This document shows, piece by piece, positions 16,458-50,829 of a DNA stretch of 64,000 nucleotides (the stretch's first letter is position 1; the number at the start of each line of letters is the position of its first letter). Origin of the DNA: a virus. The stretch is from IMG/VR virus record IMGVR_UViG_3300037307_000721. The stretch is one strand, 5' to 3'. The position numbers and the translations under genes were made by a program. The notes under the pieces were generated by a model. That model was not told the origin of the DNA and searched no databases. It saw only the letters and a program-made list of their open reading frames with translations.

Positions 16458-16523
16458 TTGACGAGCCCTCCGCACCCACGTAGCCTGGATGGCGGGTGGG
16501 CGGGACGAACAGATTGGTATGCT
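16458..16523 (+). promoter_or_regulatory. G-tract promoter element, copy A
   Basis: TTGACG-N17-TAGCCT-GGATGGC-GGGTGGGCGGG-...ATTGGTATGCT-ATG. Confidence 0.75.
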
Positions 16524-16784
16524 ATGCCCTCTGAGCCGCTGAAGCAGATCTACCTGGCCGAGCTGCGTCGGGGCAGAAGCGACCGCGCCGTCCTGGCGAA
16601 GGGCGCCTTCGACACCGCGATAGGGCTCGGCCATGAAGTCCTGTGCATCGTGTGCGGAGGCCTGATTCGCTCGCTGGACGGGTCGTTCTTCCTGTTCCTC
16701 GAGCACCCCAAGAAGGGAGAGCTGGTGGCCATGGCCTGCAGCGACATCTGCCTGCGGCGGGCCAGGGCCCACGGCATCCCATGA
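16524..16784 (+). CDS. treble-clef-like zinc-finger protein
   Basis: CIVCGG...MACSDICLRRA; ATG directly after element A. Confidence 0.65.
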   Translation: MPSEPLKQIYLAELRRGRSDRAVLAKGAFDTAIGLGHEVLCIVCGGLIRSLDGSFFLFLEHPKKGELVAMACSDICLRRARAHGIP

Positions 16785-17287
16785 GGTACAGCATGAAGCG
16801 AAAGCCAAGCATGAACAGCCTGGGCGCCGCGCTCCAGGGCTTCGGCGACCCGGAGGTTCCGGGCTCCGAGGAGCTCCGGCAGCTCATCATGAATTGCGTC
16901 ACGGCCGCCAACGGAGGCGACGAGAACGACTACCGCGTGGCCGAGATCATCGAGGGCCTCCTCGAGTCCTACCTGGCAGCCTGCGCCATGGAGGATGACG
17001 AGGACGAGGACGAGCTCAACACCCTGGACTTCGCCGAGGCCGAGCGCCTGTTCCTCGCCAGCTACGCGACCGCCTACGCGCAGTCGACCGGCCAGCGTCC
17101 CGAACAGGTCGAGTCGGGCGGATGGCCCGAGTTCCTGCCCGAGAGCGGAAGGTACACCCGAGAGCTCGTCATCGACCTGGGGCGACTCGTGGGCTTCCTC
17201 GACGTGCAGCGCTTCCGTGCGCTGCAGAGCTTCTTCATCGACGAGGAGCGCCGCAAGGCCAGGATGCAGCAACTCAGCGCGGAGTGA
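16781..17287 (+). CDS. hypothetical acidic protein
   Basis: ATGA coupling. Confidence 0.7.
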   Translation: MRYSMKRKPSMNSLGAALQGFGDPEVPGSEELRQLIMNCVTAANGGDENDYRVAEIIEGLLESYLAACAMEDDEDEDELNTLDFAEAERLFLASYATAYAQSTGQRPEQVESGGWPEFLPESGRYTRELVIDLGRLVGFLDVQRFRALQSFFIDEERRKARMQQLSAE

Positions 17288-17293
17288 TCGAAG

Positions 17294-17593
17294 ATGGCCG
17301 AGCCAGAGCTCGCCGACGTCTACTACGTGGAGGAAGCCGGCGAGCTCAAGCTCGAACACTGCGACCTCTTTGTCTGCCTGCACTTCTCTCGCACGCTCAG
17401 CACCAAAGCCAAGGTCAAGCGCAGGTCGGACGACAAGCTCCTCGCCTACAGGATGAAGGACGCCCTGTCGACGAGCGAGCTCGAGGAAGAAAGCTTTGCC
17501 AAGCCTGGCCGAGGGCGACCGCCCAAGAACAAGGAAGCGGAGCTGGCGCTGGATTCTGATCCTGCCCCTGCTCTTCTGCTCGACGACCTGTAG
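17294..17593 (+). CDS. hypothetical protein with AT-hook-like motif
   Basis: KPGRGRPPK. Confidence 0.6.
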   Translation: MAEPELADVYYVEEAGELKLEHCDLFVCLHFSRTLSTKAKVKRRSDDKLLAYRMKDALSTSELEEESFAKPGRGRPPKNKEAELALDSDPAPALLLDDL

Positions 17594-17777
17594 CGAGTGC
17601 GGCGACGGCCGCTTCTGCTACCGCTACTGCCAAGAACAACTGGGACCGAGGGCCGATGTCCAGGAGGGCATCGAGATCAGCGGCGACGGCCAGCACTGCA
17701 TCTGCAAGGTGGCCGTGAAGCTGCCGGCCCAGCCCAAGGCAGAGGCCCCGGACCCCAAAGCGCAGGCGCCGAAGTAG
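17496..17777 (+). CDS. possible secreted Cys-rich protein (start uncertain)
   Basis: basic + hydrophobic segment RKRSWRWILILPLLFC, then several Cys; overlaps the previous ORF. Confidence 0.4.
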   Translation: MPSLAEGDRPRTRKRSWRWILILPLLFCSTTCSECGDGRFCYRYCQEQLGPRADVQEGIEISGDGQHCICKVAVKLPAQPKAEAPDPKAQAPK

Positions 17778-17801
17778 CTCCTGCGAGAGAGGTACAGAGC
17801 C

Positions 17802-18212
17802 ATGGCGAAAGTGAAACCCATCAGACCCCCGCTGACCTTCGTGAACTGGGAGGTCGGCGTGGACCTGCGGCATCTCGGTTGGAACCGCAGGGACCTCGAG
17901 AAGATCGCCCGCAAGTACAAGCTGCGCGACGGGCAGGCGGTCATCTTCTTCAACAACGCTCGCGACTTCGGCGGCTCGGGCTCGCACACGCCCAAGGCCC
18001 GGATCGTCTGGCAGTGCAACGGCCAGGTCCTCTCGCTCATCCCCGCGGTGGACGAGGGCGCGAAGCAGGTGAGCTACCAGCTGCTCCTGAACGAGTGGCT
18101 GCGCGCCACCTTCTCCTGCCCGGGCAACCTGGTCGAGGCCATGAACGGCTTCGACACGTCGCTCGAGCGCAGGCTCGCGGCTCGTCAGGCCGCGGTCAAG
18201 AGGGCCAGCTGA
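17802..18212 (+). CDS. IS66 accessory protein TnpB (Orf2)-like protein
   Basis: VDLR...GQAVIFFNNAR...KARIVWQCNGQVL...DEG parallels the IS66 Orf2 consensus DMRkG...GxlFvFxNrrr...KiLwwdgxG...LexG. Confidence 0.5.
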   Translation: MAKVKPIRPPLTFVNWEVGVDLRHLGWNRRDLEKIARKYKLRDGQAVIFFNNARDFGGSGSHTPKARIVWQCNGQVLSLIPAVDEGAKQVSYQLLLNEWLRATFSCPGNLVEAMNGFDTSLERRLAARQAAVKRAS

Positions 18213-18565
18213 TGGCCTGGAAGCGCGCCAAGGGCAACGGCCGGCTCTTCTCCGAGAAGCAGAAGGACCGCATGGTCCAGATGGTGCTCGACGGCAAGAG
18301 CAAGGCCGAGGTCATCAAGGAGGTCGGTTGCCACCGCTCGTGCCTGGACTACATCCTGGTCGAGCGGTTCGGCACGCCCACGGTCAAGCCGGGCATGAAG
18401 CCGAAGGGCGCCAAGAAGATCGACGTCGAGGAGACCGGGCCGGCGCTCGACGAGGGTGAGCGTGACTACCTGCTCTGGGCACTTCGAGGGGCGCTCAACA
18501 AGGTCGGGGGCGCGAGCTATGTCGACCGGCTCATCGCCGACATCCGGGATGGCCGACTGGATTGA
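18212..18565 (+). CDS. helix-turn-helix protein (HTH_Tnp_1-like)
   Basis: FSEKQKDRMVQMVLDGKSKAEVIKEVGCHRSCL; TGATG coupling. Confidence 0.65.
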   Translation: MAWKRAKGNGRLFSEKQKDRMVQMVLDGKSKAEVIKEVGCHRSCLDYILVERFGTPTVKPGMKPKGAKKIDVEETGPALDEGERDYLLWALRGALNKVGGASYVDRLIADIRDGRLD

Positions 18566-19352
18566 GCCTCCGCCGCGCCCCTGCGTGGGCTGCAGCTACT
18601 GCTGCAAGGTGGCGCCCTGCATCCCGGGCTTCCTGGTCTACGGGCCGGGCAAGCCCTGTGGGGCCCTGCGCTGGGACGCCCGGGGCGGGCGCTACCTCTG
18701 CGGCGTCGTGCTCGACGAGCCGGAGCGCACCCGAGACAAGCTGAAGGAGCAGATGGCCATCGGCGCCGGCTGCTCGTCGCCGCTCTTCAACGAGGAGCGA
18801 GAGAGGATGATTCAGATGACACGCGGCAAGATCAAGGACACGCACGCCGGGGTCAGGCTCGTGGAACGCCTCGACGGGGTCGTCTCGCTCGAGGAGCTGC
18901 GCAAGCGCCTCACGGACGGGGACGTCGAGTACCTGCGCCGCCAGTCGGTGACGCGCTCGCTCTGCCGAACCGCGGCCCCGGATGGCACCTGGGTCTACAT
19001 GGTGGTGAATCGCAAGACGAAGAGCATCATCACCATCCTGACTCAGGAGCTCGCCGAGGAGCTCTACAGGCAGATCGGCCGAGACCCACGGGAGCTCAAG
19101 CTCGTCCCGCCCGACCTCAAGCAATGCCAGGGTGAGAAGCGCGAGGGAGGCCCGTACTCCTTCATGACGCTCGGGCCAATCCCGCCCCTGAAGCGCTGCA
19201 CGAACGCGCCGACCGTCGTCGTGCGCGAGACCAAGCCGGCCGAGGACGGACTGCAGGGTTCGATGTCGCTCTGCGACGAGTGCCTCGAGGCCTTTCGGAA
19301 GCAGAACCCGCACGCCAGCTACAGCGTGAAGGAGATCAAGCGCGATGGGTAG
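18549..19352 (+). CDS. multi-domain protein: CxxCxxCC cluster + HAxxRxxER domain + Zn finger
   Basis: CVGCSYCC; THAGVRLVER...VVNRKTKSIITI; C...C...LCDEC. Confidence 0.6.
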   Translation: MADWIEPPPRPCVGCSYCCKVAPCIPGFLVYGPGKPCGALRWDARGGRYLCGVVLDEPERTRDKLKEQMAIGAGCSSPLFNEERERMIQMTRGKIKDTHAGVRLVERLDGVVSLEELRKRLTDGDVEYLRRQSVTRSLCRTAAPDGTWVYMVVNRKTKSIITILTQELAEELYRQIGRDPRELKLVPPDLKQCQGEKREGGPYSFMTLGPIPPLKRCTNAPTVVVRETKPAEDGLQGSMSLCDECLEAFRKQNPHASYSVKEIKRDG

Positions 19353-20130
19353 CATCCAGATCGAAGGCATCCTCATCAGCAAGAACCGCAAGACGGGCTG
19401 CTCCATCAACGTCGACCAGTGCACGCCCACCCCGTGGTGCCGGCCGCACTGCTACCGCTGTTTCCGCGACGAGGTCATCATCGCCGAGAAGGGCTGGGAC
19501 ACGACGCCGAACTCGGGGCCCATCACCTGGCGCACGCAGCGCGAGTCCTACAAGCGCAACGAGCGAGCCATCATGCTGGCCGGCCAGGAGGGCAGGCTCG
19601 ACACCGCGGCCGCGCTCATCGCATGTCGGCTGAAGGACCCGGACCCGCTGCGCGGCAACGGCACGGGCGACCTGTTCCCCGAGCTCTGCGAGCTCTACGC
19701 CCGCATCGCGTTCCACGGCAAGCCGGTGTTCCTCTTCTCGCGCCGGCCGGCCATGATCCGCGAGCTCCTCGACGTCTGCGATGGGTTGGAGCTCGATCCG
19801 GCGAAGCGGCCGTTCGTCCTGGGGTCCATCGACCCCTCGACCACGCTCTGCGAATGCCACCAGCTCGTCGAGGCCACGGCAGCGATCAACGGGCGCCCGG
19901 TGCTGGCCTACGCTACGGACAAGGGCGGAGGCATGGGCTGCGGCGAGGTTCGGGCGCATCGCTTCAGCCAGTACATCCAGGTGGTCTTCGGCTACCACAC
20001 GAACTTCATCAAGACCGTGATTCCGCATCCGCTGGCCTGCCCAGCAACCAACGGGCGGCCAATCCACTGCCGCGAATGCCGAAAATGTTTCGGACTTGAC
20101 CAGGACACTCCAACGGTTCGACAATGTTAG
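19345..20130 (+). CDS. Gp88-like putative Fe-S (radical-SAM-like) protein
   Basis: NRKTGCSIN..CTPTPWCRPHCY N-terminal Cys triad, C-terminal CPAT..CxxCxxC. Confidence 0.55.
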   Translation: MGSIQIEGILISKNRKTGCSINVDQCTPTPWCRPHCYRCFRDEVIIAEKGWDTTPNSGPITWRTQRESYKRNERAIMLAGQEGRLDTAAALIACRLKDPDPLRGNGTGDLFPELCELYARIAFHGKPVFLFSRRPAMIRELLDVCDGLELDPAKRPFVLGSIDPSTTLCECHQLVEATAAINGRPVLAYATDKGGGMGCGEVRAHRFSQYIQVVFGYHTNFIKTVIPHPLACPATNGRPIHCRECRKCFGLDQDTPTVRQC

Positions 20131-20140
20131 TATCGTTGTC

Positions 20141-20827
20141 ATGCCACAAGGAGTGCCCATGGGAAAGTACTCGGTGCGCTGCCGCGCGTGCGGCGCGCGA
20201 TTGGGTGCGATCACCGCCGCGCACGTTCGCGGACACGGAATGACTCTAGTCGCCTACATGCGCCGTTTCGGCGGCCCGCTAACCGCCGAGCTTGTGCGCC
20301 AGAGTCGAGGAAGAGCCAAGTCGCCGGAGCAGCGAAAATCGCTAGCCGAACGATTCTGGGAGAAGGTATCGCGTGGGGCTGAGGACGAGTGCTGGCTGTG
20401 GACCGGCGCCGGGGCTCGCACGAGCCGCTACGGCAACCTGATCCGCCCCGACGGCCAACACGCGCAGGCGCATCGCGTGGCGTGGGAGTTGGCGCATGGG
20501 CCCGTGCCTGACGGATTGCAGGTACTCCACACTTGCGATCATGGACTATGCGTCAATCCTGCTCACCTGTTTCTTGGAACGCAGCTCGACAACGTGTTGG
20601 ATATGGAACGCAAGGGCCGCCACGGGCGCGGCTACCAACTGGCACCTGGCTGCCGCCAAGGCGAGTGCAATGGCAATGCCAAGCTCACGGAGAAGCAGGT
20701 GCGACTGGCTAAGCAACTGGCGGCGCGTGGCATGCGCCCGTGCGACATACAAGAGCGGACAGGCATCAAGAAGAACACGCTGTTTCACATTCTGAGCGGA
20801 CGCCAGTGGACGCATGTCGAACCATGA
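20141..20827 (+). CDS. HNH homing endonuclease (HNH_3 type) with N-terminal Zn-finger-like domain
   Basis: CWLWTGA...AHRVAWELAHG...VLHTCDHGLCVNPAHLFLGTQLDN; more A/T-ending codons than neighbours; start among 20096/20141/20159. Confidence 0.9.
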   Translation: MPQGVPMGKYSVRCRACGARLGAITAAHVRGHGMTLVAYMRRFGGPLTAELVRQSRGRAKSPEQRKSLAERFWEKVSRGAEDECWLWTGAGARTSRYGNLIRPDGQHAQAHRVAWELAHGPVPDGLQVLHTCDHGLCVNPAHLFLGTQLDNVLDMERKGRHGRGYQLAPGCRQGECNGNAKLTEKQVRLAKQLAARGMRPCDIQERTGIKKNTLFHILSGRQWTHVEP

Positions 20828-20900
20828 GAAGGAGTGCCCCGCGACGGCCGGACAGCACGTCAAGTGCACCGAGTGCCGGCGCTGCTTCGGGCCGGAATGA
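20814..20900 (+). pseudogene. displaced original 3' end of the Gp88-like gene
   Basis: HEKECPATAGQHVKCTECRRCFG aligns with HPLACPATNGRPIHCRECRKCFG at 20026-20094. Confidence 0.7.
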
Positions 20901-20956
20901 GCTTGATCTATCCCATGCCCTAGCGGCAGAATGTCCTCGAGGTATAGGAGAAAGCC

Positions 20957-21262
20957 ATGAAGAAGATCGAGGGACTCAACAGCAAAGAGCAGGTGCTTCT
21001 CAACGTCTTCGCCGACGGGAAGGAGCACACCATCCGCGAGCTCAAGAAGCTCTTCCTCCACGAAGCGGCGGCCCGTCTGGCCGGGCACTACAAGGGCTGG
21101 GGCAAGAAGGATGTCGACGCCACGGCCCAGAGCTACGTGCGCAACTCCCTGCGCAAGCTCGTCGCGCAGGAGTGGATCGAGCTCGTCGGGCGCGGGACCT
21201 ACAAGCGCACCGACAAGGCCGCCGACCGGTTCCGCCGGCTGAAGCAGAAGAAGGCCGCCTGA
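20957..21262 (+). CDS. winged-helix DNA-binding protein
   Basis: LNSKEQVLLNVF...VRNSLRKLVAQEWIELVGRGTY; AGGAG SD. Confidence 0.7.
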   Translation: MKKIEGLNSKEQVLLNVFADGKEHTIRELKKLFLHEAAARLAGHYKGWGKKDVDATAQSYVRNSLRKLVAQEWIELVGRGTYKRTDKAADRFRRLKQKKAA

Positions 21263-21263
21263 C

Positions 21264-21588
21264 GTGCTGATCTACAAGTACGTCCTCGAGAAGAAGTACG
21301 GAGAGCAGACGATCGAGATGCCCTACATCTCGGTGCCCATCTCGTTCGGCCTGGACCCGCAGGGGCAGCTCTGCGTCTGGTGCCTGGTCGACACCTCGCA
21401 GCCCAAGACGCACGGGGGCGCGACGGACAACACTCGTCCACCGCTTCTTCGTGGGCCTGACGGGGCACGAGGGGCCGAGCCTCCCACTCGACGTCCTGCG
21501 CCGGGCGACGACATTCCTCGGCACGGTGAACGACGGCGGCTACATGCTGCACGGCTTCTACATGGGGTTCGAGCAGCCGAAGGCATAG
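21264..21588 (+). pseudogene. frameshifted small phage gene (DUF7352-like family, name from memory)
   Basis: IYKYVL...QTIEMP...QGQLCVWCLVD in one frame; RFFVGLTGHE...FLGTV...GGYMLHGF in the +1 frame; G5 run at 21414-21418. Confidence 0.6.
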
Positions 21589-21661
21589 GGCAAGAACGCA
21601 CCTCCCCCTTGCGCTGAAACCAGGTGGTTTGAGCGAGGGCCTGACCCTACACGAATTCAGC

Positions 21662-21690
21662 TCGACATGGCAAGCGAAAAAGTGTAGAGT
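21662..21690 (+). promoter_or_regulatory. sigma70-type promoter
   Basis: TCGACA-N17-TAGAGT, 9 nt upstream of ATG 21700 with no SD (near-leaderless). Confidence 0.5.
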
Positions 21691-21699
21691 GTTTTTCCC

Positions 21700-22029
21700 A
21701 TGGACCTCACCGTGAACCAGAGCAACATCTCGTTCCCCGAGACCGTGACGGTGGACGGCTTGCGCTGCTTCGTCCTGCAGTGGACACCCATCCTCGGCGA
21801 CGGCATGCCCTGGCCCATCTTCTGGGACGTGCGCGTCGAAGAGAACTTCGAGAAGCACCGGGTCTGGGTGTGCGGCGCCATCTCCATGCGCATGTGGGCC
21901 CAGTTGCGCGACTCGCTCGGCTGGGACGCGCAGGAGGTCAAGGAGCGCCTGCGCCAACACCTGCTCAACCGGATGCCTCTCGGCCTGGGCTGGGACGTGC
22001 AGATCATCGTCGCGGACCCGCCGGCATGA
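21700..22029 (+). CDS. hypothetical protein
   Basis: GC3-biased ORF. Confidence 0.7.
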   Translation: MDLTVNQSNISFPETVTVDGLRCFVLQWTPILGDGMPWPIFWDVRVEENFEKHRVWVCGAISMRMWAQLRDSLGWDAQEVKERLRQHLLNRMPLGLGWDVQIIVADPPA

Positions 22030-22235
22030 TGAGCCAGGACGAGCGGATGAACCGAGAGGCGAATGCGTTCGCCCGGGCGCTGCTCATGCCAGCGGACCTC
22101 CTGCGCAACGAGATCGCCAAGCGCGGCGGCAAGGTCACGTCGCAGATGCTCGTCGAGCTCGCCGAGCTGTTCTGCGTCGAAGAGCACCAGATGACCATTC
22201 GTCTCATCGAACTGGAGATGATCAAAGCACCATGA
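22026..22235 (+). CDS. ImmA/IrrE-like C-terminal fragment protein
   Basis: REANAFARALLMP...LAELFCV...IRL; no HExxH. Confidence 0.65.
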   Translation: MMSQDERMNREANAFARALLMPADLLRNEIAKRGGKVTSQMLVELAELFCVEEHQMTIRLIELEMIKAP

Positions 22236-22861
22236 CCATCGTCGAGAAAGGCATGAAGCTCGACGTCCAGGACGTCAAGAGCCACCAGGTGGAGAAGCTG
22301 CACTTCCGCTTTCGCGGCTTCGGGTGGATGAACGTCTTCCTCGACGACATGGGCAAGCACGGCACCTACAACGCCGGCGAGCTCGCCATCCATTCGGACT
22401 GGGGAAGCTGGGCCTACACCTGGACGGGCATCCCCGAGCACGAGACGCTGCGCCAGTTCTTGTGCACGGCCGGCAACGACTACCTCGCGCGCAAGCTGCT
22501 GGGCGGGCAGGACGTGGAGGAGTGGGACTCGGAGGCCACGAAGGAGGCGCTCCGCAAGTACATCAACGAGGAGTGCCCCGAGGAGGGCTATGAGCGCAGG
22601 ACCTTCTCCGGGCACACGAAGACCGTGCTCAAGAAGGCTCTGCTCGAGTTCCTCGAGGGCTGCGACTGGGACAACGGGCTCACGCTCTGGGTCGAGCGCA
22701 TGGATAGCGACCTATGCGACTTCCTCAACGGTGAGCCCTGGGAGCACGTCGTGCACAAGCCGACGACCACGTATCTCGTGCTGACCGAGGGCCTGCTCCC
22801 GGCGCTGAAGGACTACCTGAAGGAGCAGGAGGCCAAGCCCAAGCTGGAGTCGGTGCCATGA
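22232..22861 (+). CDS. conserved phage protein (GELAIHSDWGSWAY...DYLARKL)
   Basis: ATGA coupling; GC3 bias. Confidence 0.75.
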   Translation: MTIVEKGMKLDVQDVKSHQVEKLHFRFRGFGWMNVFLDDMGKHGTYNAGELAIHSDWGSWAYTWTGIPEHETLRQFLCTAGNDYLARKLLGGQDVEEWDSEATKEALRKYINEECPEEGYERRTFSGHTKTVLKKALLEFLEGCDWDNGLTLWVERMDSDLCDFLNGEPWEHVVHKPTTTYLVLTEGLLPALKDYLKEQEAKPKLESVP

Positions 22862-23118
22862 CCGCTCAGCGCGTCGAGGAGCACGTCGGTTGGGTCATGA
22901 CCCTGGACGAGACGGCCTGCGTCGATGGCGAGCCGTGTCGGCTCTACTTGACACCGGACGGTCTACTGACGCCCGACATTGAGCAGGCCGAGTTCATCCC
23001 GGACGTGACCGACCACCGCGGCCAGGCGTTCTTCTTTCCGAACGACCCGCGGAAGAGGTTCACCTGTCTCAAGGTCATGCGCGTTCTGACCATCACGCAG
23101 AAGACGGAGCTCCTCTGA
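22858..23118 (+). CDS. hypothetical protein
   Basis: ATGA coupling. Confidence 0.6.
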   Translation: MTAQRVEEHVGWVMTLDETACVDGEPCRLYLTPDGLLTPDIEQAEFIPDVTDHRGQAFFFPNDPRKRFTCLKVMRVLTITQKTELL

Positions 23119-23417
23119 TGGCCGAAGAGCACTTCGCCGAGACCTATCCGGTCTGCCCGCACTGCGGCCACGTCGACCGCGACTGGTGGGACGTGTCTCC
23201 GTCACGGCGCGTGGAGGAGGACGCCGAATGGGAGACCGAGTGCGGCACGTGCGAACAGACCTACATCGTGAGGGTGCGCGTGAGCATCTCGTTCGACACG
23301 TGCGTCCCGAAGAGCCCGAGCTGGGTCTGTGACGAGTGCGGCGAGCACGTGCTCGAGTCGGACGAGCACAAGTGCTGGCGGACAGGCCTGGTGATCAAGA
23401 GGCCAGGGCTGGAGTGA
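23118..23417 (+). CDS. multi-zinc-ribbon protein
   Basis: CPHCG, CGTC, CDECG..HKC. Confidence 0.7.
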   Translation: MAEEHFAETYPVCPHCGHVDRDWWDVSPSRRVEEDAEWETECGTCEQTYIVRVRVSISFDTCVPKSPSWVCDECGEHVLESDEHKCWRTGLVIKRPGLE

Positions 23418-23421
23418 TGCC

Positions 23422-25325: not shown

Positions 25326-25527
25326 CGGCAGCCAGATGTTGCTCCTCGGCCTGTCGAAGACGAACATGGACAAGCTGCTCGAAGGCCTACCCATCGCCGT
25401 CGACATCACGGTGAACGGCGCGCACCTGCGCATCGGCATCGTCGGCGGCGAGACCGAGGAAGCCATCATCGCTGAGCTGCGGCGGCACTTTCCGCAGCTG
25501 CACGGTCGCCCCGACCTGCTGCACTGA
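25297..25527 (+). CDS. small conserved phage protein (MIKA...LLGLSxxN)
   Basis: GGAG SD; GC3 bias. Confidence 0.65.
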   Translation: MIKAILSNDDGSQMLLLGLSKTNMDKLLEGLPIAVDITVNGAHLRIGIVGGETEEAIIAELRRHFPQLHGRPDLLH

Positions 25528-25531
25528 AACC

Positions 25532-25567
25532 CGATTCGGCCCGAATCGCATTTGTCGGATTTCGACA
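25532..25567 (+). terminator. two tandem short hairpins (terminator or operator)
   Basis: CGATTCG-GCC-CGAATCG and TGTCG-GATTT-CGACA just upstream of promoter copy B. Confidence 0.4.
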
Positions 25568-25579
25568 GGTAGATAATTC

Positions 25580-25650
25580 TTGACAACCGCGCATAGCAAC
25601 CTGTAGCCTGGACGGCAGGGCGGGTGGGCAGCAGATTGCTGTGCATTGCC
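25580..25650 (+). promoter_or_regulatory. G-tract promoter element, copy B
   Basis: TTGACA-N18-TAGCCT-GGACGGC-A-GGGCGGGTGGG-...ATTGCTGTGCATTG. Confidence 0.75.
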
Positions 25651-25663
25651 AGCTGGAGGATTC

Positions 25664-25918
25664 ATGATGCCCCTGTTCGACAAGAAAGAGCACGACAAGG
25701 ATCAGAAGAGCTACGAGGGCCGGCAGCACGCGCTCGAGCTCCTGCAGGACACCTGCGTAAAGGGCGGTGTCTGCGCCGCTTGCGGCGCCTCTGCGGGGAT
25801 GTACCTCTCGGGGCTCGCCACGCGCGGCCTGGGCTACGACAAGAAGCGCTTCCTCGAGCTCGCCGCCGAGGTGTGGGAGGACCTGGAGCGCCAGAACCGC
25901 GAGAACCCGGTCAACTGA
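25664..25918 (+). CDS. hypothetical protein
   Basis: GGAGG SD; CAACG. Confidence 0.7.
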   Translation: MMPLFDKKEHDKDQKSYEGRQHALELLQDTCVKGGVCAACGASAGMYLSGLATRGLGYDKKRFLELAAEVWEDLERQNRENPVN

Positions 25919-26513: not shown

Positions 26514-26524
26514 GGTCTTGAGCC

Positions 26525-40037: not shown

Positions 40038-40038
40038 G

Positions 40039-42332: not shown

Positions 42333-42342
42333 GGAGAGCGAC

Positions 42343-43322: not shown

Positions 43323-43531
43323 ACAGCTTCCCACCAACGTGCGACTGGTGCGGTCGACCGCTCGAAACCTCGAGTGGCGTCTGCTTCGACTGCGGCACGC
43401 AGATGGTCTACATCTCGCCCAGCTGGACGTACGACAAGCACGGCAATGTGAAGAAAGACCCGGGTTGGTACGGTCCCGCCAAGTTCATGCCGGCCCGCTA
43501 CAGAACGAAGGAGAACCCATGTCTGGTTTGA
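43319..43531 (+). CDS. small zinc-ribbon protein
   Basis: CDWCG...CFDCG; GTGA overlap. Confidence 0.6.
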   Translation: MNSFPPTCDWCGRPLETSSGVCFDCGTQMVYISPSWTYDKHGNVKKDPGWYGPAKFMPARYRTKENPCLV

Positions 43532-44289
43532 TCATCAACGGGAAGACGGTCCAGGTCCCGGGACTGGAGATCGTCAACTACTACGACCATCCGGAGCTCA
43601 AGCTCCGCGCCGGCGAGGACATGCGCGAGCGGCACACGCGCTGGATCCGTTCGGTCTGCTGGCACAACACGAAGAACATTCCGACGGCGCTCAAGCCCGG
43701 CTGCGGCCCGAACACCGACCTCGAGCACCGCATCACGCGCTGGTGGTCGAAAGACGGCACGCACGCCGGCGCGCATCTCTGCGTGGACTGGGATCAGACG
43801 ATCGGTTGCATGGCCGACCTCCTCCAGGACGCGACCTACCACGCGAGCTCGCTCAACGAGGTGTCCATCGGCGGCGAGCTCTACGAGGACAGCAAGGGCG
43901 TCATCTACCAGGCGCAGATCTCGGCCGCGGTGCGCGCAACCATCTGGATGTGCCAACGCTTTGGCATCCAGAGGCAGATCCCCGCTCCGGGGCACAACGA
44001 TGTGATCGATCGGGTTCGGGAGGGAGGAGAGGACTGCGTCGGCGTGTTCGGCCACTGCCATCAGTACAGCGGCAAGCCCAACGACCCGGGCGTGCACATC
44101 TTCCAAGCCCTGGAGAAGGCTGGTTTCCGGGTATTCGACTTCCGCGCCGACGAGGACAAGGACTACTGGCGCGACCTTCAGCGCAAGCTCGGGCTCAAGC
44201 CGGATGGCATCCCAGGGCCCAAGACGCGCGACGCGCTCCAGGCCCGCGGCTTCGCCTACGGCTTGTACGACTGGCAAACGGCGCTCTGA
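43519..44289 (+). CDS. endolysin: N-acetylmuramoyl-L-alanine amidase (Amidase_2) + PG-binding domain
   Basis: VCWHNT, GAHLCVD, HA..NEVSIGGE, VFGH..KPNDPG; C-terminal LQRKLGLKPDGIPGPKT. Confidence 0.85.
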   Translation: MSGLIINGKTVQVPGLEIVNYYDHPELKLRAGEDMRERHTRWIRSVCWHNTKNIPTALKPGCGPNTDLEHRITRWWSKDGTHAGAHLCVDWDQTIGCMADLLQDATYHASSLNEVSIGGELYEDSKGVIYQAQISAAVRATIWMCQRFGIQRQIPAPGHNDVIDRVREGGEDCVGVFGHCHQYSGKPNDPGVHIFQALEKAGFRVFDFRADEDKDYWRDLQRKLGLKPDGIPGPKTRDALQARGFAYGLYDWQTAL

Positions 44290-44510
44290 TGCGATTCGAG
44301 TTGATCGGCATGCACCTGAATCGACAGCCCATCGCTTTCGACGAAGGCGGTATGCCGTGCTGGTCTGCCTGGACTGAATGGCTCACGCGGCACCGGTCGA
44401 AGTTGACCCTGCTCGTGGCGGGGGCCAATGAGGTCACGCTCGATCATATCAACGTCACCGTGACCCTGGAGACGCCCAAAATACTGGGAAAAACTAGGCA
44501 TCCGCGCTAG
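44289..44510 (+). CDS. hypothetical protein
   Basis: TGATG coupling; weaker codon bias. Confidence 0.5.
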   Translation: MRFELIGMHLNRQPIAFDEGGMPCWSAWTEWLTRHRSKLTLLVAGANEVTLDHINVTVTLETPKILGKTRHPR

Positions 44511-44535
44511 ACTGCGGCCGGACGGAGGTGCCACC

Positions 44536-45186
44536 ATGGCCATCAAAGATTGGTCGACCAATTACCCAACCGAGCAGGACGTGCTGGCCACGGTGCAGCC
44601 CGACCTGCAAGACGACGTCGACAACACGCGCGTCACGCACATTCACACCGTGCGCAACAAGGTGCAGCAGGTCGCGCTCCAGGTTGGCGATGAGAACGAC
44701 CTGCCGGCCGGCTGCCTGCGCGAGCGCGTGCAGGCGCTCGAAGACGCCGGCGGTGGGGGCAGCGACCGCTACCTGGTCTGGCATGAGGACACGCACTACT
44801 TCGAGGCCGGCATCAGCTTCGTCACGCAGCTGACCAGGCGCATCGTCCGCGATTCCAACAAGCCCCCGCTCCTCTGGCGGATCGTCATCGGCCTGTGGAA
44901 CGAAGGCTCCTACGGTGGTCGCGCCCAAGCTCTCCTGAAGATCGGAGACCTCGGCGAGACGCCGCACTACGACTCGGTCGTCATCTACTCGGACCTGAGC
45001 TTCAGCGAGGCCGTCTACTCGACGACGCTGCTGCCGACCGATCCGGACAACGAGCCCCAGGACACGGTGCTCGACATCGCCATCGACTTGCGCTGCGACA
45101 CCTCGGGCGACACGGCCCACATGCAGTACATGGACCTCTACGCCCTGACCGCTTTGCCGCCGACACCCCCGCCGGGACCCGGCTAG
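44536..45186 (+). CDS. hypothetical protein, possibly virion-associated
   Basis: GGAGG SD; N-terminal TNYP..D...H..TVRNKVQQVALQVG resembles tail-fibre N-termini; Pro-rich tail. Confidence 0.6.
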   Translation: MAIKDWSTNYPTEQDVLATVQPDLQDDVDNTRVTHIHTVRNKVQQVALQVGDENDLPAGCLRERVQALEDAGGGGSDRYLVWHEDTHYFEAGISFVTQLTRRIVRDSNKPPLLWRIVIGLWNEGSYGGRAQALLKIGDLGETPHYDSVVIYSDLSFSEAVYSTTLLPTDPDNEPQDTVLDIAIDLRCDTSGDTAHMQYMDLYALTALPPTPPPGPG

Positions 45187-45196
45187 GAGCAGCCCC

Positions 45197-46036
45197 GTGG
45201 ACGTCGCCACCCTCTTCGATCGCAACCACCTCGTCGAGGGCTTGGTCTGCGTCGAGGCAGCGCTTCGACAGGGCGCCGAGCTCGTGCACGTGCTCTGCCT
45301 CGACGCCACGACCGAGGGCAAGCTGTTCGAGGTTGGCCTCGACCAGCTTCTTCTCATCCCACTCAAGGACGTCGAGAACTTCTTTCCCCGGCTTTCGCCG
45401 CTGCGCAACGAACGCGACTGGCCGAGCTACACCGACACCCTCAAGCCATTCTTCGCTGGCTACCTCCTCGAGTTCTTCGGGGCCGAGAGCGTGACTATGG
45501 TGGACTCCGACGTGTACTTCTGGGGTCCGGTCGAGGAGATCGGTTTCGTCATGCGCGATCAGCGCGCCAACCTGCTCGTGATCGACCGCGAGTACGAGCC
45601 CCCACTTCCAGCCGGCTACTACAACAACGGCTTCGTGGCGATGAACGAGGGCGGGTTGCCTTTCCTCCACTGGTGGCAGGAGCGCTGCATGGAGCGCTGC
45701 GAGTGGATGACCAAGGGCCCCAACGGCGAGTTCGGCGGCGAGGGCTACCTGGACGCCATCCGCGCCGGTACATTCAGCGGAGCCCGCGGTGTCAAGCACC
45801 CCGGGCTCAACCTGGGACCCTGGAACGCGCGCTTCCACGAGGTGACGGCCAGCGGTACCGGGCTCCTCGTCGATGGCCAGAATCCTCTCATCTGCTACCA
45901 CTACCGCGGTTTTCAGGACCATGATCAACCCTTCGACGAACAGGCGCCAGGGCCAGCCTGGGCGAAGGAGCTCCTGCATCGGCCCTACTACGAGAAGCTT
46001 CGCCACGCGGCGGAGCGTTTGGAGCGACGGCCGTGA
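45197..46036 (+). CDS. GT-A-fold glycosyltransferase (nucleotide-diphospho-sugar transferase / GT8-like)
   Basis: TLFDRNH, VDSDVYF (DxD), GYYNNGF, WWQERC, YLD, HPGLNLGPWN, CYHY. Confidence 0.8.
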   Translation: MDVATLFDRNHLVEGLVCVEAALRQGAELVHVLCLDATTEGKLFEVGLDQLLLIPLKDVENFFPRLSPLRNERDWPSYTDTLKPFFAGYLLEFFGAESVTMVDSDVYFWGPVEEIGFVMRDQRANLLVIDREYEPPLPAGYYNNGFVAMNEGGLPFLHWWQERCMERCEWMTKGPNGEFGGEGYLDAIRAGTFSGARGVKHPGLNLGPWNARFHEVTASGTGLLVDGQNPLICYHYRGFQDHDQPFDEQAPGPAWAKELLHRPYYEKLRHAAERLERRP

Positions 46037-46058
46037 GCCGCCTCCCGAGGTATAGAGC

Positions 46059-46682
46059 ATGCACGTCCCCGGTCGAAAGGACCTGTTCGAACGCGCCAGG
46101 TCGGCGTTCGGCGCAACAGTCACAGCGATAGAGACGTACCGGCAGGCGCAGGCTGGGGTGCTCCAGAACCCAGGCTTGCCAGTGAACGACGCCACGCTGC
46201 AGGCGTTCTACGAGAGCTACGTCGGCTACCGCCAGGACGTGTTCGTCGCCCTGCAGACCGACATCGCCGCTGTCGACCAGCTGTTCGCCGAGATCGTGCA
46301 GGCCATCCAGGCGACGCACGGCCAGCAACCGCCGCCCCCTGGGGAGGCCTTGCAGATCCCCGTCTCCACGCCCGAGAAGACCTACGTGCTGCGCACGTCG
46401 CACCCAACGCCGGAGAAGGAGAAGAAGCGAAGGGCCGCGCCCACACCGGCCGAAACCACTGGCAGCGGAGACTGGGAGCAGGCGCTGCAGACCATCGCCG
46501 ACACGCTGGAGCTGCTGGACCAGCTCCCCGAGGAGGCCGAGGACTTCACCTCCAGCGTGACCGAGAAGCTCACCAACATGCGGTCCTGGATCGAATCCAG
46601 GGGGCGCGTGACACCCAAGATGGAGTCAGCCATCGAGAACATGCACCGCGGCGCGCTCAAGTGGCTCGAGCGTGACGACTGA
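46059..46682 (+). CDS. hypothetical protein
   Basis: GAGG SD; GC3 bias. Confidence 0.7.
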   Translation: MHVPGRKDLFERARSAFGATVTAIETYRQAQAGVLQNPGLPVNDATLQAFYESYVGYRQDVFVALQTDIAAVDQLFAEIVQAIQATHGQQPPPPGEALQIPVSTPEKTYVLRTSHPTPEKEKKRRAAPTPAETTGSGDWEQALQTIADTLELLDQLPEEAEDFTSSVTEKLTNMRSWIESRGRVTPKMESAIENMHRGALKWLERDD

Positions 46683-46685
46683 AGA

Positions 46686-46702
46686 CGCCCCGGCGCGGGG
46701 CG
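46686..46702 (+). terminator. 7-bp GC hairpin between genes
   Basis: CGCCCCG-GCG-CGGGGCG; no U-tract. Confidence 0.3.
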
Positions 46703-46715
46703 CACGGAGGTACAG

Positions 46716-47585
46716 ATGAGTCGAGTCTATTTCCACAGCCCGTCCGGCGAGGCGGAGCTCCGCGGCGCGGAGCGACACCACATGGCCTGGTTCAGCACCC
46801 ACCTCACCTGGCCTATCATCGAGCGCTTCGCGGAGAATCGCTGGGGCGAACGCGGCACGCCGCCGCACCTGCTCAAGATCATCCCGCGCGAGAGCTACCT
46901 GCACGGGACAGAGCCGGAAGCACTCAGTCGCCTGGATGCCTTCCGCACCTGGTTCAACGTCTCGATGGACGAGAAGAACGATCACTTTCTCATCGACGGC
47001 AAGAAGCTGCGCCTGTTCCCCCTGCAGCTCAACACGCTCTACAAGATGGGCGACGACCCGCTCAAGCTCGCCGCGCGTCTTCACGCCCAGTGCGAAATTC
47101 ACACCTGGGTCGACGGACCGAATCGCGAATGGCTCGCGGAGATCATCGAGTACGGCCTGCAGACCAACATCTTCCGCCCAGGCATGGATTGGGACGAGGT
47201 GGTGGCACTCCTGCGCTCGCGGGCCGACGAACCCGTCGTCACCTCCTACTCGGTCTGTGAGCGGTTCCCTAACGCGCGCGTGGCGGGCTGGATGCAACGC
47301 CCCGAGATCCAGGCTCGACTCAAGCAGGAGCCGGACGACGACAACGAGGACATGCTCTACGAGGAGTGGTACTCCGTCCCCGACGAACAGCGCTGGGAGA
47401 TGGCCATGGCTCGCCTTCGTACCGGCGAGGCTGGAGCCGGCCTCGAGCTCAAGCCGGACGACTGGGATGAGTACTACTTCAACGAGGGGTTGACTCTCTT
47501 CGACGTGGCTGCGCATCTCGACAAGCTGGTCGACGCGGAGCGCGAGGCGAAGAAGGGCCCACAGGAGCTTGCTGCCCATGTCTGA
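46716..47585 (+). CDS. hypothetical protein
   Basis: GGAGG SD; 289-aa GC3-biased ORF. Confidence 0.8.
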   Translation: MSRVYFHSPSGEAELRGAERHHMAWFSTHLTWPIIERFAENRWGERGTPPHLLKIIPRESYLHGTEPEALSRLDAFRTWFNVSMDEKNDHFLIDGKKLRLFPLQLNTLYKMGDDPLKLAARLHAQCEIHTWVDGPNREWLAEIIEYGLQTNIFRPGMDWDEVVALLRSRADEPVVTSYSVCERFPNARVAGWMQRPEIQARLKQEPDDDNEDMLYEEWYSVPDEQRWEMAMARLRTGEAGAGLELKPDDWDEYYFNEGLTLFDVAAHLDKLVDAEREAKKGPQELAAHV

Positions 47586-49623
47586 CCACTACATCGACCA
47601 GGTCTTCGCCGACGGGGGCCTATTCGCCAAGGCGCTCGAGGGCTATGAGCAGCGGCCCGAGCAGATCCAGCTCGCGCACGTCATCGACGAGGGCTTCTGC
47701 GCAGGCAAGCACGTCCTTGCCGAAGCACCATGCGGGACCGGGAAGTCGCTGGCCTACGGCGTTCCGGCCATCGCACACGCCTGCCACAACCAGAAGCGCT
47801 GCGTGATCACGACCGCCAACATCCAGCTCCAGGAGCAGCTCTTCTACAAGGACTTCCCATTCCTCCAACGTGTGCTGCCGTTCAAGTTCTCCTTCGCCCT
47901 GATGAAGGGCAAGAACAACTACCTCTGCCTGGACCGCATCTCCGAGGGCGAGCTCGACGGCTCGTTCAACCGACTGCGGGCCAAGCCGTATCTGCGAAAG
48001 CAGATGAGCCAGCTCCTCGAATGGGCGCGAGAGACCGAGACCGGAGACAAGACCGAGCTGACGCCCGCCCCGGCTGACGAAGTCTGGCGGGCCTTCTCGG
48101 TCACCGCCGAGGACTGCAAGGCCGAGCAGTGCACGCGCAAGGACGAGTGCTGGGCGAAGCTCGCTCGCGCTATCGCGATGGACGCGCACGTCGTCATCAC
48201 CAACTACCACTTGTTGTTCGCCCACCTGGCGGTCCGCCGGCAGACGGGTGTGGACCTGGTCCTTCCGCCCTTCGAGCACCTGGTGATGGACGAGGCACAC
48301 GAGGCCGCGGAGATCGCTCGCAGCTTCATGGGCTTCAGCCTGAGCAAGTTCGTCATCGCCAAGCTCGTGCGATGGCTGCGTGGTCTCGGGGACAACTACG
48401 CCAAGCTGCGCTCGGAGCTCGACACCGAGGCCGAAGCCTTCTTCTCGATGGCCAAGGCGGTGCACGACGACAAGCTCTACAACATCCGCCTGCGCTCTCC
48501 GGGCTGGGACAAGGGCCTGCACGGCAAACTGTTGCCGCTACTCGACCAGTGCACCGATGCCGCCGCGGCCATCCTTCGCCAGGCGCGCCGGGAGGTGCCC
48601 AAGTCGGACAAGGAAGGCGACAGCGTGGCGCGCAAGATCCAGGAGGCCGCGCACGCTAGCAGCGTGGCGGCATCCGTGCGTGCCCGACTCCTGAACGTGG
48701 TGAACCTGGCCGACCAGAACCTGGTCTACTGGATCGAGCTCACCTCAGCCAAGAACGCCATCATCAAGACCAAGCCGATCGACGTCAGTGCCATGCTGCA
48801 CGAGGAGCTGTTCAAGAAGACCAGGTCCAGCATCATGACGTCGGCCACGCTCAGCACCGGCGGTCACTTCGAGTTCCTGCGCACGGAGCTCGGCGTGCCC
48901 GACAACACGTTGCAGACCATCGTGTCGAGCCCCTTCAACTTCACCGAGCAGTCTCTGCTCGTCGTGCCCCAGGACACGCCCGACACCAAGGACGAGTTCC
49001 GGTTCCAGCAGGCGGTGGCTGATGCCATCGCGCAGGTCGCTCAGGCCTGCGGCGGTCGCACGCTCTGCCTCTTCACCTCGATCAAGAACATGAAGGCGGT
49101 GCACGAGCTGGTCCGCAAGCGCCGGCTGCCCTATCGCCTGCTCCTCCAGGGGGCCGAGATGCAGCGCATGGAGCTCTACCGCGCCTTTCGCGAGGACGAG
49201 AGCTCGCTCCTCTTCGGTGTTGCCTCCTTCTGGACAGGCGTGGACGTTCCCGGCGAGGCGCTCATCGGGCTGGTCATCGACAAGCTGCCCTTCCCGAACA
49301 TGAGCGACCCCTTCAATGACGCGATCAAGACCAAGTGGAAGGACTCGTTCAAGCGCTACTCGCTGCCTCGGGCCATCATCACCCTGAAGCAGGGCATCGG
49401 GCGACTCATCCGGCGCAAGGACGACTACGGCGTCGTGGTGGTCGCCGATCGCCGGGCCGTCGAAAGCTCCTCCTACAGCCGACAGTTCCTGCTCTCGCTG
49501 CCGCCGATGTCGAGCTCTCGAAGCCTCGCCGACATCCCGATCTTCCTCAAGCCGCATCAGGAGCGCGCGGTGGCGAAACGCGCCGAAGGCGCCAAGGCGC
49601 GAGTCGAGAAGGAGATTGCCTAG
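47578..49623 (+). CDS. dinG: DinG/YoaA-family Fe-S helicase
   Basis: RPEQ, EAPCGTGKSLAY, NYLC + three further Cys, DEAHE, TSATL, FWTGVDVPG, IDKLPF, LKQGIGRLIR. Confidence 0.95.
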   Translation: MSDHYIDQVFADGGLFAKALEGYEQRPEQIQLAHVIDEGFCAGKHVLAEAPCGTGKSLAYGVPAIAHACHNQKRCVITTANIQLQEQLFYKDFPFLQRVLPFKFSFALMKGKNNYLCLDRISEGELDGSFNRLRAKPYLRKQMSQLLEWARETETGDKTELTPAPADEVWRAFSVTAEDCKAEQCTRKDECWAKLARAIAMDAHVVITNYHLLFAHLAVRRQTGVDLVLPPFEHLVMDEAHEAAEIARSFMGFSLSKFVIAKLVRWLRGLGDNYAKLRSELDTEAEAFFSMAKAVHDDKLYNIRLRSPGWDKGLHGKLLPLLDQCTDAAAAILRQARREVPKSDKEGDSVARKIQEAAHASSVAASVRARLLNVVNLADQNLVYWIELTSAKNAIIKTKPIDVSAMLHEELFKKTRSSIMTSATLSTGGHFEFLRTELGVPDNTLQTIVSSPFNFTEQSLLVVPQDTPDTKDEFRFQQAVADAIAQVAQACGGRTLCLFTSIKNMKAVHELVRKRRLPYRLLLQGAEMQRMELYRAFREDESSLLFGVASFWTGVDVPGEALIGLVIDKLPFPNMSDPFNDAIKTKWKDSFKRYSLPRAIITLKQGIGRLIRRKDDYGVVVVADRRAVESSSYSRQFLLSLPPMSSSRSLADIPIFLKPHQERAVAKRAEGAKARVEKEIA

Positions 49624-49650
49624 GAGCGCGAGGACCGCGCGCAGGAGTGG

Positions 49651-49875
49651 TTGGTCTACCTCCGGGTGGTCGCCTTGACCTATGACGAGGACACCGTGGA
49701 GACCCTGCGCCGGGACATGGCCGACGCCATCCATCGCGAGCCACCAGGATTCCTGGACCCGGTGCTGGCCAAGATCGGCGTCGAGTTCCCCGCCGAGCAG
49801 CCCCGATTCGCCAAGCTCTACGCGGAGGCGCAGGAGCTGGCGAAAGTTGTTGACGAGCCCCTCGCCAATCTATAA
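49651..49875 (+). CDS. small hypothetical protein
   Basis: GC3-biased; its stop is part of the -10 box of element C; start uncertain. Confidence 0.5.
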   Translation: MVYLRVVALTYDEDTVETLRRDMADAIHREPPGFLDPVLAKIGVEFPAEQPRFAKLYAEAQELAKVVDEPLANL

Positions 49876-49920
49876 GCTGGACGCCGGGTGGGAGGGCCGG
49901 TGATGATTGTATGCTATACA
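49850..49920 (+). promoter_or_regulatory. G-tract promoter element, copy C
   Basis: TTGACG-N17-TAAGCT-GGACGCC-GGGTGGGAGGG-...ATTGTATGCTATAC. Confidence 0.75.
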
Positions 49921-49936
49921 GCGATAGGCATCGACC

Positions 49937-50299
49937 ATGGACCTGAATGAGACCGTGAACAAGCTCGCGAGCGAGGACGTCGCCGCGACGGCCCCTCGAG
50001 AGGGCCTGCTCTTCTACGCCCTGGCCATCGCGCTCGAGCCCTGGCGCTTCGATGAGGACGCGATCGACGCAGTGCTGCTACCCTTGCTCGAGGAGCGAGG
50101 TTGCATCGGCTGTGGCATCGAGCCGGTGGATGACGACCTGGTCATCAAGACCCAGGTGTACCTGGACCGACCGCCGGCCGAGGAGCACCAGGCGCTGGCC
50201 TCCGATCTTCAGGAGGTCCTGCCGGGCGACTACAAGGTGACGACGAGCTGGGCGAAGGTCGCGAAGTACGACGAGGAGCACACGAGTGAGATCGTTTGA
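49937..50299 (+). CDS. hypothetical acidic protein
   Basis: ORF downstream of element C. Confidence 0.7.
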   Translation: MDLNETVNKLASEDVAATAPREGLLFYALAIALEPWRFDEDAIDAVLLPLLEERGCIGCGIEPVDDDLVIKTQVYLDRPPAEEHQALASDLQEVLPGDYKVTTSWAKVAKYDEEHTSEIV

Positions 50300-50345
50300 C
50301 CGCGGCCGTTGGGCCGTGGCACACTACCAGACTGCGAGGTGAGCT

Positions 50346-50597
50346 ATGCCAGACACGATCACGTTGCCCAAGGTGGACGGAGACCCCGTCGCCTTCATCT
50401 TCCGAGGCGGCAAGCGGACGCGCCCGAGCGAGTGGGACCAGGACGCCAACGGGTTCTACATCAAGGGCTACGGGACCGAGCTCCTGCCCGACGACACCCC
50501 CACGGTCCTCCTGAAGGTCACGGGCTCCGGCCTCACGCCCAAGGCCAAGCGCTACGTCACGGACGCCTGGGTGGACCTGCCCGTGCCCCCGACCTAG
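50346..50597 (+). CDS. hypothetical protein
   Basis: GAGGTGAG SD; GC3 bias. Confidence 0.7.
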   Translation: MPDTITLPKVDGDPVAFIFRGGKRTRPSEWDQDANGFYIKGYGTELLPDDTPTVLLKVTGSGLTPKAKRYVTDAWVDLPVPPT

Positions 50598-50757
50598 GGT
50601 CGTTCTCTCCCTCCCTGTTCCATTCTCCTCGCCTGACGACCAACCAGTAGCCCTCGCGCCGTTCCATCCGGCGGCCGCACTTCTCGCACTGCCGCGTGCC
50701 TTCGTCGAGGTCGTCTAGCGACCAGCCGCATGGGCATGGACTGCCGAGGAAGCTCAT
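50557..50757 (-). CDS. small zinc-ribbon protein
   Basis: CPCGW...CEKCG; ATG directly after element D. Confidence 0.55.
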   Translation of the reverse strand: MSFLGSPCPCGWSLDDLDEGTRQCEKCGRRMERREGYWLVVRRGEWNREGENDPRSGARAGPPRRP

Positions 50758-50829
50758 AGCACAGCATACAGCAGCTGCCGCCCTCCCTCCCAGCCATCCA
50801 GGTTATATGATATAAGTCGCATCTGTCAA
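50758..50829 (-). promoter_or_regulatory. G-tract promoter element, copy D
   Basis: minus strand TTGACA-N18-TAACCT-GGATGGC-T-GGGAGGGAGGG-...CTGTATGCTGTGCT-ATG. Confidence 0.75.

Follow-up and report, generated by a model that had tools for sequence, protein, structure and literature searches.

A recurrent promoter-plus-leader cassette with three GGG runs at its predicted transcription start in a clade of uncultured phages

In T4-like phages, the PeSL cassettes (early promoter plus stem-loop) are short composite elements repeated within a large lytic genome, which stand before small variable orphan genes and whose position relative to orthologous genes shifts between relatives (PMC2839356, PMC4122927). 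Strong early phage promoters of the T5 N25 kind are read with the host sigma-70, and their function depends in part on the initial 10-20 bases of the transcript, where the non-template strand is rich in purines (PMC5961368). Traits of both systems are found in a cassette of about 85 nt that occurs in a stretch of 64,000 nucleotides (hereafter the window) from the virus record IMGVR_UViG_3300037307_000721, in which a host-type promoter is followed, at the predicted transcription start, by three GGG runs (the G block) and then by a second conserved box. The window represents bases 27201-91200 of the 111,280-bp IMG/VR record, from which it differs by a single base; the completeness of the record was estimated by CheckV at 67%, and the same genome is also found in public assemblies as a 161,996-bp version.

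PeSL joins a terminator stem-loop to a promoter, whereas here hairpins were seen upstream of one copy only and the conserved extra part, the G block and the box, lies downstream of the -10. The initial transcribed region of the N25-type promoters is A/G-rich without a fixed pattern, whereas the cassette has a strict three-GGG array and a second box that are kept clade-wide. Quadruplexes formed between non-template DNA and RNA have been demonstrated in eukaryotic cells and with the polymerases of T7 or mitochondria, none of them for a bacterial holoenzyme at +1, and with tracts tens to hundreds of nucleotides from the start, whereas the block here abuts the start. Like the transcripts of Bacillus subtilis pyrG, those predicted here begin with GGG. 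The pyrG attenuator, however, depends on a fixed fourth base C and on a terminator further downstream, the 5' arm of which can pair with the Gs that have been added. In the cassettes the fourth base is T, C or A, with no such terminator or complementarity; no terminator-like site was found between copies C or D and their first genes, and the first start codon comes within 20-75 nt. The parallel with reiterative G addition at pyrG that was drawn in an initial annotation of the window is weakened by the lack of such an attenuator. The start-associated sequences of cluster K mycobacteriophages are likewise a phage-clade-specific, G-rich leader motif before many genes, but they lie 3-8 nt before start codons and are not promoter-tied, whereas the block described here is tied to the -10 box and not to the start codon.

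Across 25 aligned copies, from a total of 27 collected in this genome and in relatives (whose loci bear L numbers), the parts are, in order, a T-rich stretch, the -35, a spacer, the -10, a discriminator, three GGG runs, a short linker and a TATRC-TATRC box. The -35 reads TTGACN in all 25 (the last base being A in 13, T in 6, G in 5 and C in 1), with TGGACT in an additional L051 copy beyond these; the spacer measures 17 bp in nine copies and 18 bp in 16, and the -10 is TAnnnT in every one, ending in CT in 20. A -35 near TTGACA, a spacer of 17 ± 1 bp and a TAnnnT -10 are the marks of sigma-70/sigma-A promoters, and the upstream half, judged by its hexamers and their spacing, is an ordinary promoter for the main sigma factor of the host with a weak TAnnCT -10. 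The discriminator is typically GGAYGGC, 7 nt long in 15 copies and 8 nt in six. Its GG(A) start is of the type that contacts sigma and stabilises open complexes in Escherichia coli, where sensitivity to guanosine tetraphosphate (ppGpp) and DksA is linked to the rRNA type, which argues against the ppGpp/DksA-sensitive discriminator suggested earlier.

The G block usually consists of three runs of exactly three G, is 11-16 nt long and always lies on the non-template strand. Its distance from the -10 is 7-8 nt in 21 copies, 6 nt in one and 2 nt in three, and its runs are separated by loops of 1-3 nt, in which single bases are T in 26 cases, A in 14 and C in 8. The block is preceded by C in 16 copies, by A in five and by T in four, which fits a start with a pyrimidine at -1 and G at +1, and at the usual spacing of 7 nt from the -10 the transcript is predicted to start with the first G of the first run. 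Three copies of a single phage (L036/L150) have the block placed 5 nt further upstream, with the predicted start still in a G-run. Downstream, the linker carries TGA and TTG words, and the box, made of two TATRC-like pentamers, lies 7-16 nt past the block and ends 0-75 nt before the first start codon; from +1 to +35 the composition is 42% G and 11% C. The cassettes are found at gene ends or in gaps, and the same-strand gene to which each points begins about 20-115 nt downstream. This orientation holds in 5/5 copies of this genome and, by the public gene calls of the relatives, in at least 11/16 of theirs.

Within the window, GGG-N-GGG-N-GGG has four matches, all at copies A to D (1.44 in dinucleotide shuffles), with none elsewhere in the whole record. 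The class had been described as having four copies, which is correct for the window; the whole record has a fifth, diverged copy (E) outside it, at genome position 5743 on the plus strand, with TATCAT as its -10, one 2-nt loop and a box that starts TAGGCT. A profile built from the copies matches the genome exactly five times, with E values below 1e-19, the next best match having E = 8.6. The G block is absent, as first noted, from six other promoters listed in the window (11643, 21662, 27422, 28219, 35386 and 54232), and the TATRC-TATRC box never occurs in this genome without a G block, indicating that the box is not an independent promoter. Copies A to D begin to resemble one another about 12 nt ahead of the -35, and the similarity stops where the box ends. 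Two subtypes can be distinguished, with A, C and E sharing TTGACG, a 17-bp spacer and a 7-nt discriminator, and B and D sharing TTGACA, an 18-bp spacer and an 8-nt discriminator. The spacers mostly differ, although A and C share the start of theirs and B and E share most of it. This residual similarity, together with the correlated subtypes, marks the copies as old duplicates in which the spacers have decayed and the boxes have not. The initial annotation had taken the differing spacers as a sign of selection rather than simple duplication; selection is borne out by the relatives described below, while the spacers prove not to be wholly unrelated.

Lack of the motif in relatives had been named beforehand as one of the findings that would refute the proposal, and it was not borne out. 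In IMG/VR, the exact core pattern was found at 18 loci beyond the copies of this genome, all of them in coding-like G-rich sequence, which were judged to be chance matches because they lack promoter context; a looser promoter-plus-block pattern returned no loci there. A promoter-plus-block pattern matched 13 loci in metagenome contigs, where about eight are expected by chance on a rough estimate. Two of the 13 (L023 and L035) encode homologues of proteins of this phage, including a terminase at 55% identity, and L029, from the same sample as L023, bears a near-identical cassette. Together these three loci hold five cassettes, which include parts not required by the search pattern. Ascertainment bias was then removed by collecting homologues of the terminase (83-43% identity) and examining the surrounding DNA. 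In ten loci fetched in this way (about 195 kb), the promoter-plus-block expression has 14 matches, compared with 0.02 in shuffles, and a profile search together with a scan of a whole record added two more copies. The resulting 27 copies come from at least ten phages, and the related uncultured ones, at least ten in number, have terminases 55-72% identical and GC contents of 0.49-0.66. A convergent pair of cassettes beside the terminase gene, represented here by C and D, recurs in L023, L036, L042 and L043. In three more distant or divergent relatives (L041, L047 and L052), the 12-21 kb examined next to the terminase show no cassette. On this evidence the cassette is very probably a clade-specific promoter class kept by selection.

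A search of bacterial and archaeal genomes with the terminase profile brought up no relative. The promoter-plus-block pattern matched 96 scattered loci there, in many phyla, which are taken as chance matches, as none of them matched the rest of the cassette; the best of them reached an E value of 3e-4 over the forced part only and gives no host clue. Self-splicing or homing elements are common in this clade. Several terminase relatives (P0012, P0016, P0018, P0021 and P0032) are 700-890 aa long, with LAGLIDADG/intein Pfam marks in P0018 and P0032, and other relatives have an intein-bearing UvrD (L052:1-3297) and a UDG gene with a LAGLIDADG domain (L043:16825-18300). In L029, a tRNA gene (1291-1365, minus strand, 49.8 bits) lies on the strand opposite to the cassette and abuts its leader.

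From its sequence, the cassette would most likely mark early transcription units, read by the host polymerase, for small host-takeover or anti-defence genes. That these units are early is probable, and this assignment is drawn from the host-type signals, from the orphan and anti-defence genes behind the cassettes and from the absence of a phage polymerase or sigma in the sequence examined. The first genes after the cassettes are small orphans with no Pfam or PHROG family. In L042, L043 and L051, a gene of the Acb5 family, directed against the cyclic oligonucleotide-based antiphage signalling system (CBASS), lies directly behind a cassette; anti-defence genes of this type are expected to be early, which supports the early class. 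The family is reported to be a viral binder of immune signals (bioRxiv 10.1101/2025.07.12.664507). The window encodes a homologue of its own (51080-51316, minus strand; 78 aa), which is 53-54% identical to the products of the Pfam-marked Acb5 genes of L042, L043 and L051, matches phrog_7499 and is probably an anti-CBASS signal binder. This gene follows an RF-1-domain gene with no cassette before it, cassette D standing two genes further on. Since Acb5 is preceded by a cassette in the three relatives and not here, the cassette moves, like PeSL, relative to orthologous genes. No phage sigma, NusG, single-subunit (T7-type) RNA polymerase or Q (PF03589) was detected in the 111 kb of the 67%-complete record, which fits use of the host polymerase, although the blank for the T7-type polymerase carries little weight because the model also found nothing in 14 control genomes. 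A hunt for transcript-derived contigs with the gene behind copy C found the gene only in contigs longer than 50 kb.

For the G block, a role in initiation and promoter escape can be put forward tentatively, at odds short of even. The block would act in cis, with the polymerase starting with guanosine triphosphate (GTP) and writing a G-rich, C-poor sequence over the first 11-16 nt, a stretch as long as the abortive/escape window, and the pyrimidine-G steps at the loops would serve as initial-pause signals. In this way the block would set how easily the polymerase is released from a tightly bound promoter and how much GTP is needed for it, and would give all transcripts of the class the same G-rich 5' end. 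The initial transcribed sequence can alter promoter strength more than 10-fold; productive yield is correlated with how rich in purines it is, and the initial pausing at (T/C)G steps slows escape (PMC5961368). The reading as a whole, an early promoter cassette for the host polymerase with a G block that acts in initiation and escape, is given a probability of roughly 45%.

Several observations weigh against it. The -10 matches TATAAT at only 3-5 of six positions, for which reason a consensus promoter scan misses the cassettes. Effects of the initial transcribed sequence are usually degenerate, so that three exact GGG runs and a box kept over such divergence are not obviously demanded by them; an action in escape does not explain the regularity of the G-runs or the presence of the box. 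In the three copies with the upstream-shifted block, part of the block would not be transcribed, which favours a role of the non-template DNA over one of the RNA 5' end. As the record is only 67% complete, a phage factor may have been missed, and the cultured-phage collection holds no close relative by DNA, polymerase or terminase protein.

The pattern of conservation within the block is one ground for an alternative based on G-structure. The runs are fixed and the loops are free in base and in length (1-3 nt, T more often than A and A more often than C), always on the non-template strand, and this fits a G-structure rather than a double-stranded protein site or a Shine-Dalgarno sequence. The non-template G3 tracts, with the nascent RNA or with the GG of the discriminator, could form a hybrid quadruplex, an R-loop or a G-vacancy quadruplex that throttles or switches the promoter, and such a gate may be sensitive to guanine nucleotides or be cleared by helicases. 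For a hybrid quadruplex, two tracts on the non-template strand suffice, and the strongest inhibition in reporter assays was seen with three (PMC3664831). All 25 copies have two to three G3 tracts downstream of the predicted start, a number at which hybrids could form. When the GG of the discriminator is included, the non-template DNA of 23/25 copies offers at least four G-runs, each of two or more G, with loops of up to 3 nt, and the three upstream-shifted copies retain four DNA tracts. The complementarity of the block to its own leader is no better than that of random windows (median rank 0.65), which would leave the block free to fold. The quadruplex idea of the initial annotation is nonetheless weakened. 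A canonical quadruplex (four tracts of at least three G, loops of 1-7 nt) is encoded in 0/25 copies and a fourth tract is present in the predicted RNA of only 10/25, so that hybrid, two-tetrad or vacancy quadruplexes would be the only forms possible. The cassettes have G4Hunter scores of 1.25-2.25, and about 20 other windows of the genome reach 1.75 or above. Furthermore, the experiments on hybrid quadruplexes were made with T7 polymerase and human cells, not with a bacterial holoenzyme (PMC3664831), and a brake built into early promoters needs a rationale. Release of the structure by DinG or UvrD of the phage, a link first suggested by the position of copy C about 230 bp downstream of dinG (227 nt as measured from the stop codon), finds no backing in the relatives: DinG-like and UvrD-like helicases are also encoded in L041 and L052, where no cassette was found within 21 kb. 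A gate of this kind is unlikely, but the regular runs with short, free, T-rich loops, the strict strand bias and the upstream-shifted copies make it, like a factor that binds a single strand, a serious rival. A natural bacterial co-transcriptional switch, in which a hybrid or G-vacancy quadruplex or an R-loop gates early promoters by guanine-nucleotide supply or helicase activity, is a little less likely still.

The presence of two separate conserved transcribed elements points to another alternative, in which the runs and the box, as RNA or as single-stranded non-template DNA, are bound by a protein of phage or host origin. An elongation or antitermination factor loaded as it would be at ops, nut or put sites is one option and a repressor that acts back on early mRNAs another, and a small Cys-rich protein encoded just downstream is a possible candidate, as small CxxC-type proteins come first behind many copies. 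The flexible spacing from block through linker to box (7-16 nt) and the variable loops fit a single strand better than a duplex operator. Moreover, a TAnnnT hexamer at +14 to +31, found in 20/25 copies compared with 12.7 in shuffles and accompanied just upstream by TTGAYA in several relatives, recalls a sigma-dependent promoter-proximal pause. The hexamer is, however, more distant from the start than its counterparts in lambda and phage 82, and the -35-like word is missing from all five copies of this genome. The NusG/RfaH, Q and sigma families were not found in the 111 kb searched, and the leader shows no Rfam match and no conserved fold: none of the cassettes in L001-L003 and L029 matched an Rfam 15 model with an E value of 1 or less, no convincing consensus RNA fold of the leader was obtained, and for the 34 nt after the block the folding-energy z-scores of the 18 copies scored scatter around 0 against shuffles. 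A factor-loading site is accordingly considered improbable, to about the same degree as a G-structure gate. In A, C, D, L029, L042 and L051 the box can be drawn as a small AU-rich hairpin in which some changes seem to compensate one another, but these hairpins are too weak to score. A guide RNA of the VIPR type was also considered for the block and rejected, as only three G-runs are present, with a period of 4-6 nt and no repeat array. The vrRNA of VIPR has 9-16 tandem YNNGG repeats (period 5) and a conserved 3' tail (bioRxiv 10.64898/2026.04.26.720920).

The relation of the box to translation starts differs among the copies and bears on a post-transcriptional role of the leader. The start codon of A, D, L042, L043 and L035 is placed inside the box or within 3 nt after it and has no Shine-Dalgarno sequence, so that the AU-rich box might be a ribosome landing or start region for genes without one, while the G-rich, C-poor 5' end might protect early mRNAs from 5'-end-dependent nucleases and Rho, as its composition would allow. 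The other copies, however, have a normal Shine-Dalgarno sequence and a start 20-35 nt past the box. Leaders of 20-75 nt are also short for Rho loading, the block forms no 5' stem, and part of it lies upstream of the predicted start in three copies. A leader that works in this way is quite unlikely. In most copies an ATG, GTG or TTG is found 0-9 nt past the block, and several of the mini open reading frames (mini-ORFs) that begin there end at or over the start codon of the first gene (B, C, L035), as they would if the block were the ribosome-binding site of a tiny leader ORF that couples translation of the first gene. Nevertheless, neither the kind of start codon nor the frame is conserved, nor is the length, which runs from one codon to over 100; the frame in E has three codons and L038-17381 has no start, and loops of T or C are commoner than those of A, so that the block is mostly not complementary to the anti-Shine-Dalgarno sequence. 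On these grounds a conserved leader mini-ORF was rejected, and such coupling is very improbable.

The order of a promoter, a G-cluster and an AT-richer box is also that of oriF and oriG in T4, of the primary origin of T7 and of the second conserved sequence block (CSB II) in mitochondria, and the copies might then be transcription-primed replication origins in which the G-cluster starts an R-loop and the box is easily melted. CSB II is dealt with in PMC4176368. The phage does encode a family A DNA polymerase and DinG-, UvrD- and SNF2-type helicases. There are at least five copies, however, each heading a gene in the direction of that gene, the box comprises only about 12 bp with about 50% A+T in this phage, and the GC skew turns where the coding strand changes, with no clear match to the positions of the copies. 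The chance that the cassettes are origins is accordingly put very low.

In the window, the positions, hexamers, spacers, discriminators, G blocks and boxes first reported for the four sites were all recovered from the sequence. Cassette A (16446-16530, plus strand) has a T-rich upstream part, its -35 at 16458-16463, a 17-bp spacer, the -10 at 16481-16486, the discriminator at 16487-16493, the G block at 16494-16504 and the box at 16518-16528. The first start codon (16524) falls within the box and opens an 86-aa, Cys-containing orphan without a Shine-Dalgarno sequence (16524-16784, plus strand). Cassette B (25568-25652, plus strand) has its -35 at 25580-25585, an 18-bp spacer, the -10 at 25604-25609, the G block at 25618-25628 and a diverged box that begins at 25640, and is followed by an 84-aa orphan with a GGAGG Shine-Dalgarno sequence (25664-25918, plus strand). 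Two short hairpins with stems of 6 and 5 bp (25533-25568, plus strand) come before it, after the stop of the upstream gene at 25527; the pair resembles a terminator-plus-promoter cassette and was not seen at the other copies.

Cassette C (49838-49922, plus strand) comprises a -35 at 49850-49855, a 17-bp spacer, a -10 at 49873-49878, a G block at 49886-49896 and a box at 49910-49920, and is followed on the same strand (49937-50597) by orphans of 120 aa (49937-50299) and 83 aa (50346-50597). Cassette D (50755-50841, minus strand) has its -35 at 50829-50824, an 18-bp spacer, the -10 at 50805-50800, the G block at 50791-50781 and the box at 50768-50755. Behind it lies a possible Cys-rich ORF of 66 codons (50557-50757, minus strand) with a weak coding signal (GC content at third codon positions of 0.75), which a public gene caller does not call and which has 41 nt in common with the 3' end of the convergent 83-aa gene. 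C and D are convergent and 980 bp apart, their transcription units overlapping at the 3' ends (50557-50597). Copies A, C and D abut or overlap upstream coding sequence; the -10 of C holds the stop codon TAA (49873-49875) of an upstream 74-codon ORF and the -35 of D holds the stop codon TGA (50828-50826) of its upstream gene. Such stop codons inside promoter hexamers show a very tight packing of genes and signals. CxxC-type cysteine pairs are found in many of the small proteins at or beside the cassettes (16524-16784, 25664-25918, 49937-50299 and 50826-51080); these proteins may be zinc ribbons, although no family was found for them.

The genome has a GC content of 65-66%, and in the window the genes lie on the plus strand until about 50,600 and on the minus strand from there on. 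Besides the polymerase and helicases named above, it encodes a terminase and tail proteins. The gene of the DinG-like protein occupies 47569-49623, and a search for relatives with the protein as query gave nothing. A 153-aa protein that has an RF-1 domain (release-factor GGQ type) is encoded at 51320-51781 (minus strand), immediately behind the terminase gene. RF-1 or PCRF+RF-1 genes occupy the same place in relatives, and the protein may be a phage-encoded ribosome-rescue or release factor; when it was searched for a host clue, matches were found in viral clusters only.

Phage-specific promoter classes are already well known. What is unusual in this one is that its most conserved part is a regular array of G-runs at the predicted start, kept from 49% to 66% GC. 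The cassette thereby offers a natural test in bacteria of whether G-rich non-template DNA at +1 acts through escape kinetics, through GTP sensing, or through hybrid quadruplexes or R-loops, which are mostly open questions. It is also a practical marker of probable early, anti-defence or host-takeover genes, an Acb5 homologue among them, in an uncultured clade of large phages, and its shifting position suggests that the cassette travels with such genes.

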